Positions 4,056-64,000 of a DNA stretch of 64,000 bases are shown here, one piece after another. Position numbers and translations under genes: made by a program. The stretch lies in NCBI GenBank assembly GCA_030648265.1, contig JAUSHX010000013.1, forward strand, positions 3,030 to 67,029. Reading direction: 5' to 3'. How positions within the stretch are numbered: the first letter of the stretch is position 1; every line of letters begins with the position of its first letter. The notes under the pieces were generated by a model that worked only from the letters and a program-made list of their open reading frames with translations, was not told the origin of the DNA and made no database searches. Source of the stretch: a bacterium. GTDB lineage: Bacteria; Patescibacteriota; Minisyncoccia; Phycocordibacterales; UBA2100.

Positions 4056-4151
4056 GCGAAGCGAATTACATATTCTTAACCCAGCACCTTTCGCGAAAGG
4101 TGCTGGGCGCAAGTTGTTTCTAAACTCGGTTACTCGTTAAGAAAAACTAAT
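4056..4151 (+). repeat. Family-1 intercistronic palindromic element, copy 1 (only plus-strand copy)
   Basis: GCGAAGCGAATTACATATTCTTA-ACCCAGCACCTTTCG|CGAAAGGTGCTGGG-CGCAAGTTGTTTCTAAACTCGGTTACTCGTTAAGAAAAACTAAT-ATG. It fills the whole leuC-leuD spacer, and the leuC stop plus last codons (LEDV*) lie inside the conserved left arm. Confidence 0.85.
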
Positions 4152-8587: not shown

Positions 8588-8637
8588 GCGCAAACGGCTC
8601 AATTACCGGTAATTGAGCCGTTTGCGCTCTTTTTTTT
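8588..8637 (+). terminator. Rho-independent terminator after ilvE
   Basis: GCGCAAACGGCTCAATTACCGGTAATTGAGCCGTTTGCGC followed by TTTTTTTT. Confidence 0.8.
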
Positions 8638-8668
8638 ATTGCAGTCTTTTGCAAAACACTAGCATAGA
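8638..8668. repeat. Family-3 palindrome (degenerate copy: GCAGTCTTTTGCAAAACACTAGC)
   Basis: Related to CCAGTGTTTTGCAAAACACTGG at 11569-11604 and 28291-28327. Confidence 0.5.
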
Positions 8669-11560: not shown

Positions 11561-11568
11561 CCCCGTTT

Positions 11569-11604
11569 CTCTATTCCAGTGTTTTGCAAAACACTGGAAT
11601 AGAG
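11569..11604. repeat. Family-3 perfect palindrome CTCTATTCCAGTGTTTTGCAAAACACTGGAATAGAG
   Basis: 36-bp palindrome just upstream of the 10379-11560 gene start. Confidence 0.7.
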
Positions 11605-18272: not shown

Positions 18273-18388
18273 ATTTGTGTACCAATCAACGAATGTATTC
18301 CAATCTACAAATAACTACAAATGTTAAGCCCCGTATATTCGTAACCATTCGTAGTATTCGTATCATTTGTAGATTGGGACATACTTAT
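18273..18388 (-). repeat. Family-2 intercistronic repeat, copy 2
   Basis: CCAATCAACGAATGTATTCCAATCTACAAATAACTACAAATG...TATTCGTAACCATTCGTAGTATTCGTATCATTTGTAGATTGGGAC between sufB and sufD. Confidence 0.75.
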
Positions 18389-23374: not shown

Positions 23375-23752
23375 CTATTTTATAAGGGCCACACAGGAAA
23401 TTTCAATGAGCGCGTTCTTCGGCAATGCTGATACGCCAACTGTGGCGCGAGCTGGTTTGTGCTCGCCAAATGTTTCTGCATACACCTCATTCATGTCTTT
23501 AAAATCATTTATATCGCGCAGGTAGATGTTCACGCTCGCGACCGAATCAAAACCAACTCCCGCGGCTTGAAGAACTTCCTCAAGATTCTTAAATATCTGC
23601 TCGGTCTGCTCTTTGATTCCGCCTTTTACAAACTCCCCCGTTGCGGGGTCAGTAGGAATCTGACCCGAGCAAAAAACCAGATTTCCTGCCACAACCGCCT
23701 GCGAATACGGCCCTATTGCTTTTGGTGCCTTATCTGTGTGAATTGGCTTCAT
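23375..23752 (-). CDS. ridA: RidA/YjgF-family enamine/imine deaminase
   Basis: PKAIGPYSQAV...PARATVGVSALP..ALIEISCVA. Confidence 0.85.
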   Translation of the reverse strand: MKPIHTDKAPKAIGPYSQAVVAGNLVFCSGQIPTDPATGEFVKGGIKEQTEQIFKNLEEVLQAAGVGFDSVASVNIYLRDINDFKDMNEVYAETFGEHKPARATVGVSALPKNALIEISCVALIK

Positions 23753-23912
23753 GTTAGAGATTCTTAGCGAATGATAATGAGATTAGAAGCTCTTACACCC
23801 AGCACCTTTGTTTCATTGAGAAACGAAGGTGCTGGGTCAAGAATATGTAATTCGCTCTGCTCATAACATCTTCTAGACATTACTACAGAGGTTATGCGTT
23901 GACAATGTTTTA
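23753..23912 (-). repeat. Family-1 element, copy 2
   Basis: CATGTTAGAGATTCTTAGCGAATGATAATGAGATTAGAAGCTCTTAC-ACCCAGCACCTTTGTTTCATTGAGAAACGAAGGTGCTGGGT-CAAGAATATGTAATTCGCTCTGCTCATAAC. Fills the trpF-ridA spacer. Confidence 0.85.
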
Positions 23913-28247: not shown

Positions 28248-28290
28248 TGGAACCATTCGCGCGAATTAGACAATGCAGAAATGCTCGTTT

Positions 28291-28327
28291 TCTTATTCCA
28301 GTCTTTTGCAAAACACTGGAATAGACA
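28291..28327. repeat. Family-3 palindrome (CCAGTCTTTTGCAAAACACTGG)
   Basis: Third copy of the TTTTGCAAAA-centred palindrome. Confidence 0.6.
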
Positions 28328-29859: not shown

Positions 29860-30028
29860 GTTAGATTTTGTTAACGAATGTAATGAGTTTAGAAAATCTT
29901 ACACCCAGCACCTTTCATGCATATTCTACCACTTAATCTGCGAATACCAGCTGTTGTTTGTGATTTAAATATAGCATCTGCCTAACGTTAAAGGTGCTGG
30001 GTTATAGAAAATATAGTCGCTTTGCTCC
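29860..30028 (-). repeat. Family-1 element, copy 3 (78-nt loop)
   Basis: ...TCTTAC-ACCCAGCACC-[loop]-GGTGCTGGGT-TATAGAAAATATAGTCGCTTTGCTCCTTATTTTC. Confidence 0.85.
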
Positions 30029-34959: not shown

Positions 34960-35103
34960 GTTAGGGATTCTTAGCGAGCGATAGCGAGATTAGAAGCTCT
35001 TACACCCTGTTAAATGCGATTCTTCGAGTCGCCCCGCCCTTGGCGGGATTTAACAGGGTTAAGAATATGTAATTCGCTTCGCTCATAACATTTTCTAAAC
35101 AAA
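34960..35103 (-). repeat. Family-1 element, copy 4, with alternative stem ACCCTGTTAAAT/ATTTAACAGGGT
   Basis: Conserved arms (…GAGATTAGAAGCTCTTAC / TTAAGAATATGTAATTCGCTTCGCTCATAAC), but both halves of the stem are replaced by a different complementary pair. Immediately upstream of trpE. Confidence 0.85.
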
Positions 35104-43053: not shown

Positions 43054-43153
43054 AAGAAAAGTTGACAGTTGACAGTTGACAGTTGACAGTGAAAAACATC
43101 TCGGCTTCGAGCTTCTGTAAACTGTAAACTGTTTGCTGTAAACTGCATGATTC
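43054..43153 (-). repeat. Family-4 intercistronic element: (GTTGACA)x4 ... (CTGTAAACTG)x3
   Basis: Tandem heptamers whose two arms are near-complementary (one mismatch per unit); lies between gmk and adk. Confidence 0.7.
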
Positions 43154-43744: not shown

Positions 43745-43752
43745 ATATGCGG

Positions 43753-45027: not shown

Positions 45028-45111
45028 AAAAAGTTTACAGTTGACGGTGAACAGTTAACAGTAAAGAGGTCCCTGAGTTTCCTGTAATCTGTAAACTGTA
45101 GACTGTGAACT
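45028..45111 (-). repeat. Family-4 intercistronic element
   Basis: TTTACAGTTGACGGTGAACAGTTAACAGT ... CTGTAATCTGTAAACTGTAGACTG between rplO and secY. Confidence 0.65.
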
Positions 45112-46199: not shown

Positions 46200-46385
46200 A
46201 TCTTAGATTTAATTAGTGAGCGAAGCGAGCTTAGTAAATCTTAGACCCAGCACCACTTTTGAACTCCAGCAGTTCTTGCCGATGAGTTCTGGCTGTGATT
46301 GCTTTCGGTAGTTTTGCATAATTATCATAAGTTTCAAAAGTGGTGCTGGGTAAGTAAAATATAGTCGCTTTGCTCCTTATTTTAT
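46200..46385 (-). repeat. Family-1 element, copy 5 (stem ACCCAGCACCACTTTTGAA / TTCAAAAGTGGTGCTGGGT)
   Basis: Conserved arms. The loop is related to copy 15. Confidence 0.85.
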
Positions 46386-46724: not shown

Positions 46725-46836
46725 GTTAGTTTTTCTTAACGAGTGATAACGAGTTTAGAAACAACTTACACCCAGCACCTTTCGCGAAAGGTGCTGGGTA
46801 AAGAAATAGTAATTCATTTCATTCATAACGATTTCA
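46725..46836 (-). repeat. Family-1 element, copy 6 (fully palindromic core ACCCAGCACCTTTCGCGAAAGGTGCTGGGT)
   Basis: Fills the rplF-rplR spacer from the stop codon to the start codon. Confidence 0.9.
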
Positions 46837-47382: not shown

Positions 47383-47650
47383 GTTAGTTTTTCTTAACGA
47401 CCGAGCACTTTCTGACGATGCAGGTCTGAATAACTGTTTTAATGTTCCTTTTCGTGTTCATGTTTTTATAATCAATTAGCTTCTGAAAGTGCTCGGGGGT
47501 TTAGAAACAACTTACACCCAGCACCTTTAACGTACAGAATGCCGCGGGTTGGCGGAGTGTATTCCTTTGCGTTGTGCTTGATAAGTAAGTTCATATTGCT
47601 GGAAAAGGTGCTGGGTAAGTAAAATATAGTCGCTTCGCTCCTTATTTTAC
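47383..47650 (-). repeat. Family-1 element, copy 7, with a second hairpin (CCGAGCACTTTC...GAAAGTGCTCGG) nested in its arm
   Basis: Conserved arms. An extra 95-nt hairpin sits at about 47404-47500. Confidence 0.8.
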
Positions 47651-48353: not shown

Positions 48354-48395
48354 ATCAGATTTTGTTACGAGCGAAGCGAGTTAGAAAATCTTATA

Positions 48396-48688
48396 CCCAG
48401 CACCTTGTTTGTTTACGACAGACTGTTTTTAAGGCGATTCTTTACATAAGTGCGAGCGTTGCCATATTGCTTGAGTTGCAATTCGCGCCTTACCGCGTCT
48501 TGCTTCGCTTTATAGCTCTCGACATAGACATACTCCCATGGTCGACCGCGACTCGTTGCCGTGACTTGTCCGCTGTTGTGCGAAGCAAGACGCTCATCAA
48601 GATTCTCGGTTCTGCCAAAGTAAAGAACGCCTTTTTCAACACTGCGGATTACGTACACATGGTACATAAACAAACAAGGTGCTGGGTT
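48396..48688 (-). mobile_element. Candidate GIY-YIG mini-element: 21-bp perfect terminal inverted repeats enclosing a single nuclease ORF
   Basis: The TIRs are identical over 21 bp. The ORF start lies 10 nt inside one TIR and the stop overlaps the other. Copies 2, 8 and 17 look like internal-deletion derivatives (ACCCAGCACCTTTGTTTC...GAAACGAAGGTGCTGGGT). Confidence 0.6.
48413..48667 (-). CDS. GIY-YIG nuclease family protein (UPF0213/YhbQ-like), 84 aa
   Basis: MYHVYVIRS..GVLYFGRTENLDERLASHNSG...WEYVYVESY...A..RE.QLK. The ORF track starts 2 codons earlier at a TTG. Confidence 0.75.
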   Translation of the reverse strand: MYHVYVIRSVEKGVLYFGRTENLDERLASHNSGQVTATSRGRPWEYVYVESYKAKQDAVRRELQLKQYGNARTYVKNRLKNSLS

Positions 48689-48929
48689 ACGAAAATCATA
48701 GTCGCCTCGCTTCGCTACGGCTTCTTGATTTTCAGTAATACCCCGAAGGAGAAGCTAGAAACTCCTGCATCCTGCCTTGCGGCTGAAGATTACGGAAGCT
48801 TCTTCGCGTGACCCTGTTCTTCGTCCAACTTGTGGTTGAAAAACAAAGCCCCCAACGAGGCTCCGAAAATATACGCGAGATGCGGATGAAAGTCAAACTT
48901 CAAAAAGTCTGTTCTGAAACTAATTCGGA

Positions 48930-49529
48930 TCAAAACTTGTCTATATCGTCATTTGCTTCCCGACGCTCTTTTCTTCTTTTGAATATTTCTTCTTGAGAAA
49001 GTTTTCTACCGGGTACAAACCCCTCTCGCTTTTCCTGCTTTTGGCCTGTTTTAACTAGCATTTTCTTCCATGCGGCATCCAACGCGGGCCCAAGTTCATC
49101 AATAGGGAACCTGCGGAGAATCATCTCCCTTTCGATAGACCACGTATGCTCACCGTGCGTGGCGTAGTCAGACCCCCGTTCTCTGCGCACAGCGCTCTTT
49201 TGTTGATGAGAATCTTTTCCGAATGTGATTTTGCTGTTTATAGTACCTATGGTTTCCTCCTTTTCATTGGGATTGCGGAGGTAGTTAGTCATTCTTGATG
49301 AATAATCTACTATTTTTATCATTTCGTCATCAGAAATAGGGATTTTAAGTTCCTCTATTTCTTTTCTGAGGAAATCTTCAAAAATTGCATTGTCTACCAT
49401 TTCCTCTCCCGCGGTCTGTCCCGATTCTTTTGCTTTATCCGCCATGAGTCCTTCAAACTTCTCCGTACTCGCCTCGTGTTCTTTCTCTCGCTCGGTAGAA
49501 GCGTTTCTTTTGCCCATTTCTAGTGCCAT
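48930..49529 (-). CDS. Hypothetical hydrophilic protein (199 aa)
   Basis: ORF only; charged and low-complexity; no recognisable domain. Confidence 0.35.
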   Translation of the reverse strand: MALEMGKRNASTEREKEHEASTEKFEGLMADKAKESGQTAGEEMVDNAIFEDFLRKEIEELKIPISDDEMIKIVDYSSRMTNYLRNPNEKEETIGTINSKITFGKDSHQQKSAVRRERGSDYATHGEHTWSIEREMILRRFPIDELGPALDAAWKKMLVKTGQKQEKREGFVPGRKLSQEEIFKRRKERREANDDIDKF

Positions 49530-49657: not shown

Positions 49658-49703
49658 CCCATGTCCCTATCCAGTGGCTATAGCTATAATATAAGGACAT
49701 GGG
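49658..49703. promoter_or_regulatory. Hairpin CCCATGTCC-CTATCCAGTGGCTATAGCTATAATATAA-GGACATGGG overlapping the start of PaaX-like paralog 2
   Basis: Contains a perfect TATAAT 8 nt before the ATG. A near-identical copy lies at about 50311-50356 just after the gene. Confidence 0.75.
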
Positions 49704-50286
49704 AAGAATGGAGCTCGCGGCAAAAAAGCGCCGGAGGAAAGAGAACGTCCAACAGATAGTGCTGGGAGTAGTCGCGGTTGCGGGCATACTTGCAGTAACA
49801 ATGATTGCGCCCAATATTTTCCAAGCTATTCCGCGCCTGTTGGGCGATAAATATAAGTTTGGTTATCGAGCGCGTACCGCCGCCGGCCGCCTTGCGCAAA
49901 AGGGATACGTACGCTTCGTGGAACGAAACGGCAAGAAGTTTGTGGAGATAACAGAGAAAGGAAAACGCGCATACGCATTGGAAAAGGCAAGATTCACGGC
50001 ATACACAAACATCAACAAGCGCTGGGACAAACGCTGGCGAATTGTTGCTTTTGACATCCCAGAGACTCGGCGAGGAACACGCGAACGTGTGCGCAGACTG
50101 ATGCGCGAATTCGGGTTCCTTAAACTACAAGACAGCGTTTGGGTATTTCCCTACGACTGCGAGGAACTTATTACAATGATGAAGGCAGAACTGCGGATTG
50201 GTAAGGATATCCTGTACATAATCGCGGACACTATCGAGAACGACCAATGGGTGAGAAGACAGTTTAACCTTCTCAAAGAATCATAG
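49699..50286 (+). CDS. Membrane-anchored wHTH + PaaX_C/Cas2-like domain protein, paralog 2
   Basis: TM helix VLGVVAVAGILAV; wHTH AAGRLAQKGYVRFVERNGKKFVEITEKG; RWDKRWRIVAFDIPETRRGTRERVRRLMREFGFLKLQDSVWVFPYDCEEL. Confidence 0.6.
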   Translation: MGRMELAAKKRRRKENVQQIVLGVVAVAGILAVTMIAPNIFQAIPRLLGDKYKFGYRARTAAGRLAQKGYVRFVERNGKKFVEITEKGKRAYALEKARFTAYTNINKRWDKRWRIVAFDIPETRRGTRERVRRLMREFGFLKLQDSVWVFPYDCEELITMMKAELRIGKDILYIIADTIENDQWVRRQFNLLKES

Positions 50287-50310
50287 TGTCGTCCTATTTC
50301 TCTCGGTTTT

Positions 50311-50356
50311 CCATATCCCTATCCAGTGGCTATAGCTATAATATAAGGACATTGGG
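50311..50356. promoter_or_regulatory. Second copy of the paralog-2 hairpin
   Basis: CCATATCCCTATCCAGTGGCTATAGCTATAATATAAGGACATTGG. Confidence 0.75.
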
Positions 50357-51399: not shown

Positions 51400-51573
51400 G
51401 TTAGAGATTATTAGCGAGTATTCCGAGCTTAGAAGCTCTTACACCCAGCACCTTTTACGCCAATGCTGTTGGTTGCAGGATAATACTGTCTAAGCGCGAT
51501 TTGGGCAAGAAAATTCATAGAGATTTAAAGGTGCTGGGTTTAGAAAAATATAGTCGCGTTGCTCCTTATTTTT
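51400..51573 (-). repeat. Family-1 element, copy 11 (78-nt loop identical to copy 12)
   Basis: The loop TTTTACGCCAATGCTGTTGGTTGCAGGATAATACTGTCTAAGCGCGATTTGGGCAAGAAAATTCATAGAGATTTAAA is repeated in 51946-52100. Confidence 0.85.
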
Positions 51574-51945: not shown

Positions 51946-52100
51946 GTTAGTTTTTGTTACGAGCGAAGCGAGTTAGAAAATCTTACACCCAGCACCTTTT
52001 ACGCCAATGCTGTTGGTTGCAGGATAATACTGTCTAAGCGCGATTTGGGCAAGAAAATTCATAGAGATTTAAAGGTGCTGGGTAATGTAAAACATAGTCG
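51946..52100 (-). repeat. Family-1 element, copy 12
   Basis: Same loop as copy 11. Confidence 0.85.
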
Positions 52101-52370: not shown

Positions 52371-52503
52371 ATGTATGTTCCAATCTACGAATATATTTCA
52401 ATCTACGAATATATTCCAATCTACAAATAACTACAAATGAGCGGCGTCGTATATTCGTAGCCATTCGTAGCATTCGCATCATTTGTAGATTGGGATTTCA
52501 TAT
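52371..52503 (-). repeat. Family-2 intercistronic repeat, copy 3
   Basis: CCAATCTACGAATATATTTCAATCTACGAATATATTCCAATCTACAAATAACTACAAATG...CATTTGTAGATTGGGAT. Confidence 0.8.
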
Positions 52504-52698: not shown

Positions 52699-52813
52699 AA
52701 TGTTCCAATCTACGAATATATTCCAATCTACAAATACCTGCAAATGAGCGACACCGTATATTCGTAGCCATTCGTAGTATTCGTATCATTTGCAGATTGG
52801 GACTTCATAGGGT
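52699..52813 (-). repeat. Family-2 intercistronic repeat, copy 4
   Basis: CCAATCTACGAATATATTCCAATCTACAAATACCTGCAAATG...CATTTGCAGATTGGGAC, with compensatory T/C changes in the stem. Confidence 0.8.
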
Positions 52814-53236: not shown

Positions 53237-53473
53237 GGTAGATTTTTACTGAGCGAAGCGATGATAATCGGTATTAATACTCATATTGGCTCCTCGGCTC
53301 GGAAAAGAAAGTGAGTACACTTCCTTTTCACTCGCCCTACGTCGCCAATAAAAATCACCACCCAGCACCTTTACACCCAAAGTGCTTTCCGATGTGCAAA
53401 GGATTTTTGTAACTCTATTTTGGATATTGTAGTTCATAGTGCTGTAAAAGGTGCTGGGTCTCGATAAAAATAG
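53237..53473 (-). repeat. Family-1 element, copy 13 (arm carries an extra insertion)
   Basis: ACCCAGCACCTTTACACCC...GCTGTAAAAGGTGCTGGGT, with about 90 nt of extra sequence in the arm nearest rplP. Confidence 0.8.
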
Positions 53474-54148: not shown

Positions 54149-54309
54149 GTTAGATTTTGTTATGAGCGAAGCGAGTTAGAAAATCTTACACCCAGCACCT
54201 TTTGCGATAATAATGCTTTGGGTCGCAGGATGATACTGTTTAGCGGCAATTTGAGCAATGAAGTTCACAGTGCTTAAAAGGTGCTGGGTCAAAATTGTGA
54301 TATTGGTAT
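54149..54309 (-). repeat. Family-1 element, copy 14 (loop related to copies 11 and 12)
   Basis: Loop TTTTGCGATAATAATGCTTTGGGTCGCAGGATGATACTGTTTAGCGGCAATTTGAGCAATGAAGTTCACAGTGCTTAAAA. Confidence 0.85.
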
Positions 54310-54675: not shown

Positions 54676-54861
54676 ATCTTAGATTTAGTTAGTGAGCGAA
54701 GCGAGCTTAGTAAATCTTAGATCCAGCACTAATTTTGAGCTCCAGCATGTTTTGCTAATACGTTCTGGTCGTGGTTGGTTTCGATAGTTTTGCATATATT
54801 TATGAAGTTTCAAAATTGGTGCTGGATAAGTAAAATATAGTCGCTTCGCTCGTTATTTTAC
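54676..54861 (-). repeat. Family-1 element, copy 15, with stem ATCCAGCACTAATTTTGA / TCAAAATTGGTGCTGGAT (covarying version of copy 5)
   Basis: Arms and loop about 80% identical to copy 5, with paired substitutions in the stem. Confidence 0.85.
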
Positions 54862-55209: not shown

Positions 55210-55400
55210 GTTAGAGGTTTGTTATGAGCGAAGCGAATTAGAAACTCTTACACCCAGCACCATTTTGATATCCGTATCATCATTTGCCATTTTGAGATTC
55301 TGCTGAGACCGTCTCAACAAAGCACTGCATTTGAGAGTAAGTCGCAGGATACCAAAATGGTGCTGGGTTGTGAAAATCATTGTCGCCTCGCTTCGCTACG
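55210..55400 (-). repeat. Family-1 element, copy 16 (its arm next to the stem is near-identical to the arm of the GIY-YIG copy)
   Basis: GGTGCTGGGTTGTGAAAATCATTGTCGCCTCGCTTCGCTACGGCTCCTTGATTTTC compared with copy 9 GGTGCTGGGTTACGAAAATCATAGTCGCCTCGCTTCGCTACGGCTTCTTGATTTTC. Confidence 0.85.
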
Positions 55401-55492
55401 GCTCCTTGATTTTCTACAAAATCCCGCGGCGGCGGGATTGGCACAATGTATAGGAAATTAGGCACTTAGTCAAATTTAGCCTGATATTTCCT

Positions 55493-56341: not shown

Positions 56342-56460
56342 GTTAGTTTTTCTTAACGAGTAATCGAGTTTAGAAACAACTTACACCCAGCACCTTTGTT
56401 TCATTGAGAAACGAAGGTGCTGGGTCATGAAACTGTAATTCGCTTTGCTCATAATAATTT
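56342..56460 (-). repeat. Family-1 element, copy 17
   Basis: ACCCAGCACCTTTGTTTCATTGAGAAACGAAGGTGCTGGGT core. Confidence 0.9.
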
Positions 56461-56835: not shown

Positions 56836-56883
56836 ATAAATCAGGGTTTAGGTTTTAGGGTATAGGTTATAGATAAATTCAAA

Positions 56884-57627: not shown

Positions 57628-57650
57628 AAATCTTTGCTTGATATGAAAAA

Positions 57651-58319: not shown

Positions 58320-58500
58320 TGTGAACGCAGTGAACTAGGAAATCTTACACCCAGCACCATTTTTGCATCCCTACGATTCGTATTACTTCCCGATTTGGTT
58401 GAGACTGGCTCAACAAAGTCAGACACTTTTCACGCTAGAACGGATACAAAAATGGTGCTGGGTCGTGAGAATTATAGTCGCGCACTGCTCGCTCCTTAAT
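58320..58500 (-). repeat. Family-1 element, copy 18 (loop related to copy 16)
   Basis: ACCCAGCACCATTTTTGCATCC...TTGAGACTGGCTCAACAAAG...CAAAAATGGTGCTGGGT. Confidence 0.8.
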
Positions 58501-60846: not shown

Positions 60847-61488
<642 letters not shown>

Positions 61489-63366: not shown

Positions 63367-64000
63367 TTATGGTTCTAGGTGTCCGATGGGCGTGTTGGCA
63401 CAGGATGACTGCGTCGGATTATACGTACTACCATCACAATAGTAGTAATATGTCGTCCCGCTTTCTGGGTCCCACCCGTAAACATTTACAATACAAGTCG
63501 CTGAACTGGTCAGAATCCCTGACACTGTAAGTTCCAATCCACTCTTAAAACAACCCCAAGATTCTTGATACACTTGAGAACCATAGACAGTCGGGCCGGC
63601 GGGGCCTTGCGGACCCGTTGGACCAGTGAGTCCCGTTGCGCCAGTTGCTCCTGTCCCACCAGTTGCTCCGGTTGCTCCAGTTAAGCCGGTTGCACCTGCT
63701 GGGCCTGCCGGTCCCGTTGCACCTGTTGCTCCGGTAGTTCCTGTTGCACCCGTTGCTCCAGCCGGACCTGTTGGTCCTGGAGGCCAACTCGTAACGCAGG
63801 ACGCGCCGATGCAGAATTTCGGAGAAGTAATGGCGCTAGTGTTCACTATTGTTCCCCCCGATAAGTATATGGACATGGAGTCAAAGATAGTGTTGTTGGC
63901 CGAGAAATCTCCATGTTTGATTTGAGTAGTAATGCCGGTATTTATGGGTGTATCGGTGTTCCCGTCTGGCGGAGCGGCTGTTGGCCCTGTCCATGCATAG
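63367..64000 (-). CDS. Second collagen-like triple-helix repeat protein (paralog of 60847-61488); the N-terminus runs off the window end
   Basis: The reverse-strand frame beyond the annotated Met continues ...[22 protein letters not shown]..., matching the conserved N-terminal region of the paralog. GATGATG tracts follow. Confidence 0.55.

Follow-up and report, generated by a model that had tools for sequence, protein, structure and literature searches.

Covarying stems in a three-hairpin intergenic repeat of Kaiserbacteria-like Patescibacteria, a probable selfish element built on a GIY-YIG nuclease cassette

Introduction

The spacer immediately upstream of trpE in a patescibacterial chromosome holds a hairpin repeat in which both arms of the central stem differ from those of most related copies and still pair along their whole length. 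The question raised by this locus is what keeps the pairing while the sequence changes, and whether the hairpin matters as DNA or as RNA. The initial annotation took such paired changes as compensatory substitution under selection on a hairpin, which could be a cruciform or nuclease recognition site, an RNase III site or an mRNA stabiliser. The window analysed here, i.e., the whole stretch of 64 kb, is bacterial chromosome with leuCAB/ilvE, suf, trpEGD, purD, map, adk, and secY (Pfam scans of its ORFs) and with the S10/spc ribosomal-protein operon at 45.1–58.3 kb on the - strand. No description of the repeat, called family 1 below, was found in the literature on Patescibacteria, intergenic repeats and GIY-YIG nucleases.

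Results

Architecture and placement

Family 1 is present in 18 copies in the window, each of them intergenic, and the S10/spc operon hosts 14 of the 18, so that the majority of its junctions are occupied. An element consists of three hairpins, H1, H2, and H3, that together span the distance from a stop codon to the next ATG. On the gene strand the order is the same in every window copy: upstream stop, H1, H2, a GTAAG junction, H3, an AAC junction, and ATG. H1 has an A/T-rich stem and a loop of approximately GAGCGAAGCGA; H2 begins with ACCC at its 5' end and closes with GGGT at its 3' end around a variable interior of 10–273 nt; H1 and H3 flank H2, and the sequence of H1 roughly matches that of H3 in reverse complement. 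The copies and the one nuclease gene among them are as follows.

4056..4151, + strand: copy 1, leuC-to-leuD spacer; short 30-nt perfect-palindrome H2; the sole + strand copy
23753..23877, - strand: copy 2, 41-nt H2; abuts the ATG of ORF 23375-23752
29860..30028, - strand: copy 3, 100-nt H2; the relatives L041 and L027 have the same slot and loop class
34960..35103, - strand: copy 4, class-2 H2 (ACCCTGTTAAAT...ATTTAACAGGGT); immediately upstream of trpE
46200..46385, - strand: copy 5, L18-to-S5 spacer; H2 of 107 nt
46725..46836, - strand: copy 6, L6-to-L18 spacer; 30-nt H2; three-hairpin fold
47383..47650, - strand: copy 7, S8-to-L6 spacer; 101-nt H2; nested insert of ~140 nt with its own inverted repeat in the H3 loop
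48047..48167, - strand: copy 8, S14-to-S8 spacer; H2 of 41 nt
48354..48735, - strand: copy 9, full-length, upstream of S14; H1, a 20-bp H2 stem around the nuclease gene, and H3
48413..48667, - strand: GIY-YIG nuclease ORF, 84 aa, within the H2 loop of copy 9; operon sense; PF01541
50960..51090, - strand: copy 10, L24-to-L5 spacer; class-2 H2, variant stem
51400..51573, - strand: copy 11, L14-to-L24 spacer; 97-nt H2 identical to that of copy 12; H1 and H3 unlike
51946..52100, - strand: copy 12, S17-to-L14 spacer
53237..53473, - strand: copy 13, S3-to-L16 spacer; 100-nt H2; nested insert breaks H3
54149..54309, - strand: copy 14, L22-to-S3 spacer; degenerate H1
54676..54861, - strand: copy 15, S19-to-L22 spacer; point-compensated relative of copy 5
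55210..55415, - strand: copy 16, within the L2-to-S19 spacer; H2 of 117 nt
56342..56460, - strand: copy 17, L23-to-L2 spacer; H2 of 41 nt
58320..58495, - strand: copy 18, upstream of L3; H2 of 115 nt

The exact repeat pattern was matched at 40 loci in species-representative genomes, all with Patescibacteria/CPR labels except one 'Omnitrophica' contig, and two related MAGs have ten and nine loci that match it. A second scan, which constrained only GGGT, parts of H3 and CTAACATG, gave at least 120 further metagenome loci. Pooling both scans resulted in 175 non-identical elements among the matches listed, with the upper H2 stem left unconstrained; parts of H2 or H3 were fixed in both scans and their conservation is therefore partly imposed by the collection. 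The ribosomal proteins at the exact-pattern loci are 56–95% identical to those of the window and the best matches are to Kaiserbacteria-type MAGs, which argues that the host is one Kaiserbacteria-like clade and not the whole radiation. S10/spc-cluster genes lie downstream of one third of the sampled copies, an enrichment that could equally be read as an expression-related role. An origin as a phage element or promoter-stem-loop cassette was rejected, as the repeat has no match in phage records or viral contigs and the adjacent genes are housekeeping genes.

Placement relative to genes is strict. All 18 window copies are in gene orientation, including copy 1 with its + strand genes. After 170 of the 175 elements the abutting ATG opens an ORF of 50 codons or more (median 198), and a same-strand ORF ends in or near H1 before 78% of them. 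The orientation tracks the gene even in the 26 of 116 copies whose sense strand has a negative GC skew, and copies on both strands are found at three loci. The CTAAC-ATG junction is near-constant across copies, with a precision that exceeds what selection alone readily explains. The element-free spacers inspected in the window (57628-57650, 56836-56883, 45028-45111, and 43745-43752) have no Shine-Dalgarno motif before the ATG, and translation initiation in the host may be Shine-Dalgarno-independent. Insertion directly against an ATG may be tolerated because the genes are without this motif.

In many copies the H1 and H3 loops are complementary, and copy 4 folds accordingly. Kissing of the two loops, or one long hairpin, was nevertheless rejected as the conserved structure because variant H1 and H3 loops do not covary within an element. 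Some H3 loops carry nested inserts with inverted repeats of their own, e.g., CCGAGCACTTTC...GAAAGTGCTCGG (47383-47650, 53237-53473, and L029 2101-2182); the elements are therefore insertion targets themselves. The H2 loops of about 100 nt (e.g., 51443-51539, 54190-54289, and 47516-47616) share the blocks TTGCYCAAAA, TAYTATCC and AACAGCA, and a frame of about 29 codons is open in roughly half of the copies. This frame reads MNxxAQN...VKGAGCK and extends across the 3' arm; its stop is either TTCTAA or the TAA within the CTAAC that precedes the ATG. It was rejected as coding, as differences by codon position number 231/156/209 and the ratio of synonymous to non-synonymous changes is 50:308.

Pairing is conserved in three hairpins

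In copies 4 and 10, as noted in the initial annotation, ACCCTGTTAAAT/ATTTAACAGGGT replaces ACCCAGCACC/GGTGCTGGGT between outer arms that are as in other copies; the variant arms are complementary at 12 of 12 positions. The other 16 window copies have the ACCCAGCACC/GGTGCTGGGT stem or differ from it by one change per arm, e.g., copy 15. The paired changes claimed earlier between copy 15 (ATCCAGCACTAATTTTGA...TCAAAATTGGTGCTGGAT) and copy 5 (ACCCAGCACCACTTTTGA...TCAAAAGTGGTGCTGGGT) are borne out by two compensated pairs (C>T with G>A, and C>A with G>T), and at a third position the change leaves T.G on the + strand, i.e., A.C on the gene strand.

The covariation stays strong when more copies are added. 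With the 175 non-identical elements 91.2% of H2 cells are paired, compared to 65.4% after shuffling, and double-change cells number 350 against 130 +/- 8; for H3 the corresponding values are 87.4% against 77.6% and 102 against 40 +/- 6, and in neither hairpin did any of 500 shuffles reach the observed value, bearing in mind that the copies are related by descent and the cells therefore not independent events. H1 was counted as two types, which lie one column out of register so that RNAalifold gave no H1 consensus. In type A 81.9% of cells are paired (68.0% shuffled) with 30 double-change cells against 8.1, and in type B 85.5% (71.3% shuffled) with 36 against 12.4, again with 0/500 shuffles in each. 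The first ten positions of the H2 stem were picked for complementarity; positions 11 and 12, both ignored by the partner-arm search, are Watson-Crick paired in 97 and 93%, respectively, with several pair types, and at position 5 all four Watson-Crick pairs occur. An inner pair of H3 uses G-C, A-U, C-G, and U-A, and controls with slid partners collapse. Covariation is thus present in H1, H2, and H3, and pairing is conserved in three separate hairpins.

H2 encloses a nuclease gene and falls into stem classes

In copy 9 H2 is 293 nt long and its loop is an intact ORF in operon sense (48413-48667) for a single-domain GIY-YIG protein of 84 aa. PF01541 matches residues 3-76 (E=3e-16), the catalytic GIY, YIG, Arg, His/Asn, and Glu positions align, and the closest solved structure is UPF0213 BH0048 (E=2e-5); no NCBIfam model matches the protein. 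Homologues that are 55–99% identical are found in the same scaffold before fusA, S14, gap, and hsp20, and the window shares the order H1, 5' arm, ORF, 3' arm, H3 with L029, L042, L046, L049, L052, L059, L108, L112, L144, and L147. In the window and in all of the about ten independent contexts examined, the GIY-YIG ORF lies in sense inside H2. The nucleases of full-form H2 cassettes are 84–91 aa, and most element copies are ORF-less. Judged from these sequences, H2 is the inverted-repeat shell of a GIY-YIG gene and most copies are its ORF-less derivatives.

Four to five stem classes can be distinguished, each with a distinct nuclease lineage, and the lineages are mutually 32–55% identical. In the unbiased sample every class has a full-length form; four of the classes, with examples, are:

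Class 1: upper stem AGCACC; full-length in window copy 9
Class 2: upper stem TGTTAAAT; full-length in L112
Class 3: upper stem GCCYAAATTTT; full-length in L029, L108, L144, and L147
Class 4: upper stem CGCCCTCT; full-length in L059

As the class-2 stem has its own nuclease lineage elsewhere, the change in copies 4 and 10 is a module swap and not a stepwise compensation. The earlier idea of compensatory substitution therefore holds in that pairing is kept while the sequence changes, but not for copies 4 and 10, whose stem was replaced as a module and is the ORF-less shell of a separate cassette lineage (L112). The covariation between stem class and nuclease lineage could come from mere physical linkage.

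Modules and whole elements change between relatives

The H2 stem classes are freely combined with H1 and H3 types. In copies 11 and 12 the H2 sequences (51443-51539 and 51987-52083) are identical at 97 of 97 nt between flanking hairpins that are dissimilar and belong to different subtypes, which suggests recent copying or conversion of H2 alone. H2 hence moves, or undergoes conversion, separately from the flanking hairpins.

Occupancy also differs among relatives. Related operons hold only 1–3 elements each, at differing junctions. In L021, which encodes proteins 85–95% identical to those of the window, three of the junctions left empty in the window are occupied, two family-1 junctions of the window hold an unrelated repeat family, and two have family 1 with another H2 class than in the window. 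The adk and map genes overlap in the window (ATGA), whereas in L021 a 181-nt element lies directly 5' of the map ATG and the adk stop is a TGA inside H1 of the inserted element; no target-site duplication is visible in this filled-versus-empty comparison of a single junction. In the L046 operon, which is otherwise compact, the sole element bears the nuclease gene and occupies the slot of copy 9 in the window. A search for H1-H3 scaffolds without H2, i.e., candidate empty sites, found none. As the element can be missing or replaced at the same junctions in close relatives, it is dispensable at any given site.

The hairpins are better explained at the DNA level

The ratio of G.U to A.C on the mRNA strand is 38:38 in H2, 3:30 in H3, and 18:12 in H1. 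Read in sense, the common 41-nt H2 contains a C.A mismatch, which would be a G.U on the antisense strand. H2 is found in both orientations, at 14:3 for the 41-nt form and 11:4 for class 3. Folding as DNA is equally good for both strands (z-scores of -5.6 to -8.2), and z-scores of the RNA folds are near -6. At the apex of H1 two base pairs close a GNA triloop, as GCGAAGC or covarying variants of it, and a near-invariant G.A/A.G flanks this stem; in DNA, d(GCGAAGC) forms a mini-hairpin of very high stability. Mini-hairpins of the form NN-GNA-NN are enriched: in H1 the sense strand has them in 61 of 152 cases against an expected 15.5, and in H3 the antisense strand has them in 54 of 152 against 15.0. 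This mirror symmetry fits a DNA-level element that is read on both strands, unlike a single mRNA, and together with the lack of a G.U excess it points to hairpins that function as DNA rather than as RNA. Among the options raised initially, a nuclease recognition site on a DNA hairpin fits best, and an RNase III site or an mRNA stabiliser receives no specific support (G.U not favoured, flipped H2, equal folding of the strands, GNA apices). RNA roles may nevertheless be in play, as every copy is co-transcribed with genes. The whole window gave no Rfam match at gathering thresholds, and at E<=1 the 46–58.6 kb region gave only a chance miRNA match.

Other repeats in the window

A second hairpin family (CCCAATCTACAAAT...ATTTGTAGATTGG, with extra GATTGG units) is located at 571-669, 18277-18386, 52393-52502, and 52700-52809. 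It is intergenic, likewise ends at the next ATG, and has several pairs that are G.U on the gene strand. In this family a paired arm change had also been reported, and it is plausible, as CTGCAAAT and ATTTGCAG are both altered at 52700-52809. In L021 the second family is found in the S8-to-L6 and L6-to-L18 spacers, where the window has family 1, and also between L15 and secY. A third family, a heptamer-run hairpin that reaches the ATG, is present at 45028-45111 (L15-to-secY) and 43054-43153 (gmk-to-adk), with ACAGTTT... pairing with ...CTGTCAA/AACTGT. The fourth motif, AACCTATACCCTAAAACCTAAACCC, is non-palindromic and is seen at 56836-56883 (L4-to-L23) and in the S5-to-L15 spacer of L021.

The L5-S14 interval contains an ORF of 195 aa (49699-50286, +) that is antisense to the ribosomal operon. 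It lies between two direct repeats of ATGTCCTTATATTATAGCTATAGCCACTGGATAGGGA, each some 40 nt long (~49680-49725 and 50310-50356), and has the look of a separate insertion; the neighbouring ORF (48930-49529) is 199 aa long. The palindrome TTCCAGTGTTTTGCAAAACACTGGAA is found three times at gene ends (8626-8668, 11561-11603, and 28283-28325) and may be a terminator-like or protein-binding site. Two ORFs on the - strand (60847-61488 and 63367-63876) have long repeats with a 9-nt period that encode collagen-like Gly-X-Y tracts.

Discussion

The balance of the evidence leans toward family 1 being a composite selfish intergenic DNA element of Kaiserbacteria-like Patescibacteria that is built on the GIY-YIG H2 cassette. 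The covariation would stem mainly from a mobile system of DNA hairpins that is linked to nucleases and has several lineages side by side. More tentatively, and with somewhat less than an even chance, the element may be an undescribed kind of mobile element, in which a minimal GIY-YIG single-strand nuclease inside its own hairpin homes among three-hairpin scaffolds that colonise stop-to-start junctions in Patescibacteria that seem to do without Shine-Dalgarno sites. Its own stop codons and ATG lead-in would then let it saturate the ribosomal operon while the host survives, and by now the element may be part of operon expression.

By analogy to Ssn enzymes, the nuclease would recognise its own hairpin in single-stranded DNA, and cleavage followed by repair, or template switching, would copy cassettes between elements, with whole elements occasionally being seeded at new sites. 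We infer, as the reason for the exact placement, that only insertions running precisely from stop to ATG and oriented with the gene have survived. Tolerance would be provided by the absence of Shine-Dalgarno motifs from the genes and by the 5' stop codons and A-rich lead-in to the ATG that the element brings with it. Paired changes could then arise by two routes. First, each nuclease lineage would have its own stem. Second, a hairpin that fails to fold would lose recognition or copying. A hydrolytic nuclease alone cannot account for insertion at new, non-homologous sites.

Punctuation of operons at the RNA level, which we regard as unlikely, would have RNase III cut H2, H1 guard the upstream 3' end, and H3 shield the 5' end of the downstream fragment and present the AUG, with the nuclease gene as a passenger. 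It would agree with the co-orientation and co-transcription of every copy with genes, with an orientation that follows the gene despite negative GC skew and at the three loci with copies on both strands, with the fixed CTAAC-AUG spacing, and with the enrichment in ribosomal operons. H2 stems of 13–22 bp would suit RNase III, the RNA folds reach z-scores near -6, and the rRNA genes of CPR bacteria have GIY-YIG insertions in a setting where insertion sequences are generally described as removed from transcripts (PMC11270868). On the other hand G.U is not favoured over A.C in sense; the 41-nt H2 keeps a C.A mismatch in sense and H2 is found in either orientation; the GNA mini-hairpins are mirror-symmetric across strands; no Rfam family matches; and close relatives manage without the element, or with an unrelated repeat family, at the same junctions.

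It is still less probable that family 1 is an ordinary MITE, with H1 and H3 as the terminal inverted repeats of a transposase encoded elsewhere and the GIY-YIG gene as a homing endonuclease that invaded the loop. The approximate reverse complementarity of H1 and H3, the polymorphic occupancy among relatives, the exchange of H2 independently of the flanks, and the nesting of other elements in H3 loops are all what a MITE would show. However, about 50 window ORFs scanned against Pfam include no transposase, the adk/map junction has no visible target-site duplication, and every examined nuclease homologue is in this same scaffold. Furthermore, H1 and H3 are each a self-folding hairpin with covarying pairs, a property that terminal inverted repeats do not require. 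Finally, pairing without selection, by intrastrand template switching or hairpin-templated repair that copies one arm onto the other, fits the H2 flips, the common perfect 30-nt palindromes, the arms replaced as whole blocks and intermediates that are transitions in either direction, but is improbable, as three hairpins, unpaired GTAAG/CTAAC junctions and strand-specific GNA apices persist at 56–95% ribosomal-protein identity and the nuclease-gene link is left without explanation.

For the selfish nuclease-cassette element proposed here the closest precedent is the Ssn system, for which in vitro activity has been shown and the purpose of the nuclease-hairpin pairs and the self-multiplication of the repeats were left open (Chenal et al., 2025; PMC11893778). 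Family 1 offers comparative evidence on repeat multiplication, i.e., cassette moves, filled-versus-empty junctions and lineage-specific stems. It also means that the streamlined genomes of Patescibacteria tolerate, or use, structured repeats of 110–380 nt at nearly all ribosomal-protein junctions, which bears on translation start and operon-transcript processing, as well as on how genes are called and metagenome bins assembled. In addition, every nuclease-hairpin pair is a candidate sequence-specific tool for cutting ssDNA.

Comparison with known systems

Integron attC sites are likewise imperfect palindromes between short co-oriented genes that keep structure above sequence. They were rejected as an identity for family 1, as the core motifs are inverted (GTTA...TAAC, on both strands, compared to RYYYAAC (R'')...GTTRRRY (R') in attC), and the neighbours of family 1 are housekeeping operon genes, not cassettes. 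Correia/ERIC MITEs and the RNase III sites of the T7 early operon are long co-transcribed operon hairpins as well, can be cleaved by RNase III and can alter mRNA stability, but they are without a nested nuclease gene, fixation to an ATG, or a three-hairpin plan. REP/REPIN-RAYT and IS200/IS605 systems consist of extragenic hairpins that are multiplied by a nuclease recognising ssDNA hairpins, with many non-autonomous and few coding copies. Their enzymes are HUH/Y1 transposases with covalent intermediates and REPs are not tied to start codons, whereas the family-1 protein is a hydrolytic GIY-YIG nuclease; no HUH/Y1 transposase is found among the about 50 window ORFs scanned against Pfam.

In the same radiation, the rRNA genes of CPR bacteria carry short insertions at scattered sites that encode GIY-YIG proteins and are not group I or II introns, along with short ORF-less ones, and insertion sequences in these genes are generally described as removed from the transcripts (Tsurumaki et al., 2024; PMC11270868). 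These insertions may be related to family 1, with which they share the GIY-YIG ORFs and the host radiation, although they lie inside rRNA genes.

The Ssn proteins are single-domain GIY-YIG nucleases of about 94 aa that bind an ssDNA hairpin repeat and cleave next to it; this repeat, SRM (NTS), flanks their genes and is dispersed in hundreds of copies, and distinct nuclease-repeat pairs, ORF-less repeats that are almost always extragenic, and a layout resembling an insertion sequence were described (Chenal et al., 2025; PMC11893778). Family 1 shares with this system a small single-domain GIY-YIG gene (84–91 aa here) bracketed by hairpin-forming inverted repeats, many ORF-less repeat copies that are nearly all outside genes, distinct nuclease-repeat pairs, and an insertion-sequence-like layout. 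It differs in that the gene is located inside one hairpin, whereas the Ssn gene lies between complete hairpins; in being a fixed three-hairpin composite that is gene-oriented, abuts start codons and saturates the ribosomal operon; and in its patescibacterial host, a group absent from that study (PMC11893778). The SRM motif (searched as HGTCWY N0-2 YYVSBRH N0-5 WNVSBRG N0-2 RNCYNB) had no match in the window when both strands were searched (chance expectation 0.5), compared to four matches in each of the controls L174 and L175. These controls are the two canonical Ssn loci among six weak tblastn matches of the cassette nuclease to plasmids. The family-1 nucleases are 28–39% identical to the two SRM-flanked Ssn proteins (34–46 bits) and are without their C-terminal W-x-R-x-W-K...NP-x-W motif. 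Without claiming membership, we infer by analogy that family 1 probably works like Ssn/SRM. In L175 (Azospirillum lipoferum plasmid AZO_p3, 255376-255885) the Ssn gene, with two SRM hairpins per side, is inserted between sufB and sufC and co-oriented with them, which shows that operon-internal nuclease cassettes are not confined to Patescibacteria.
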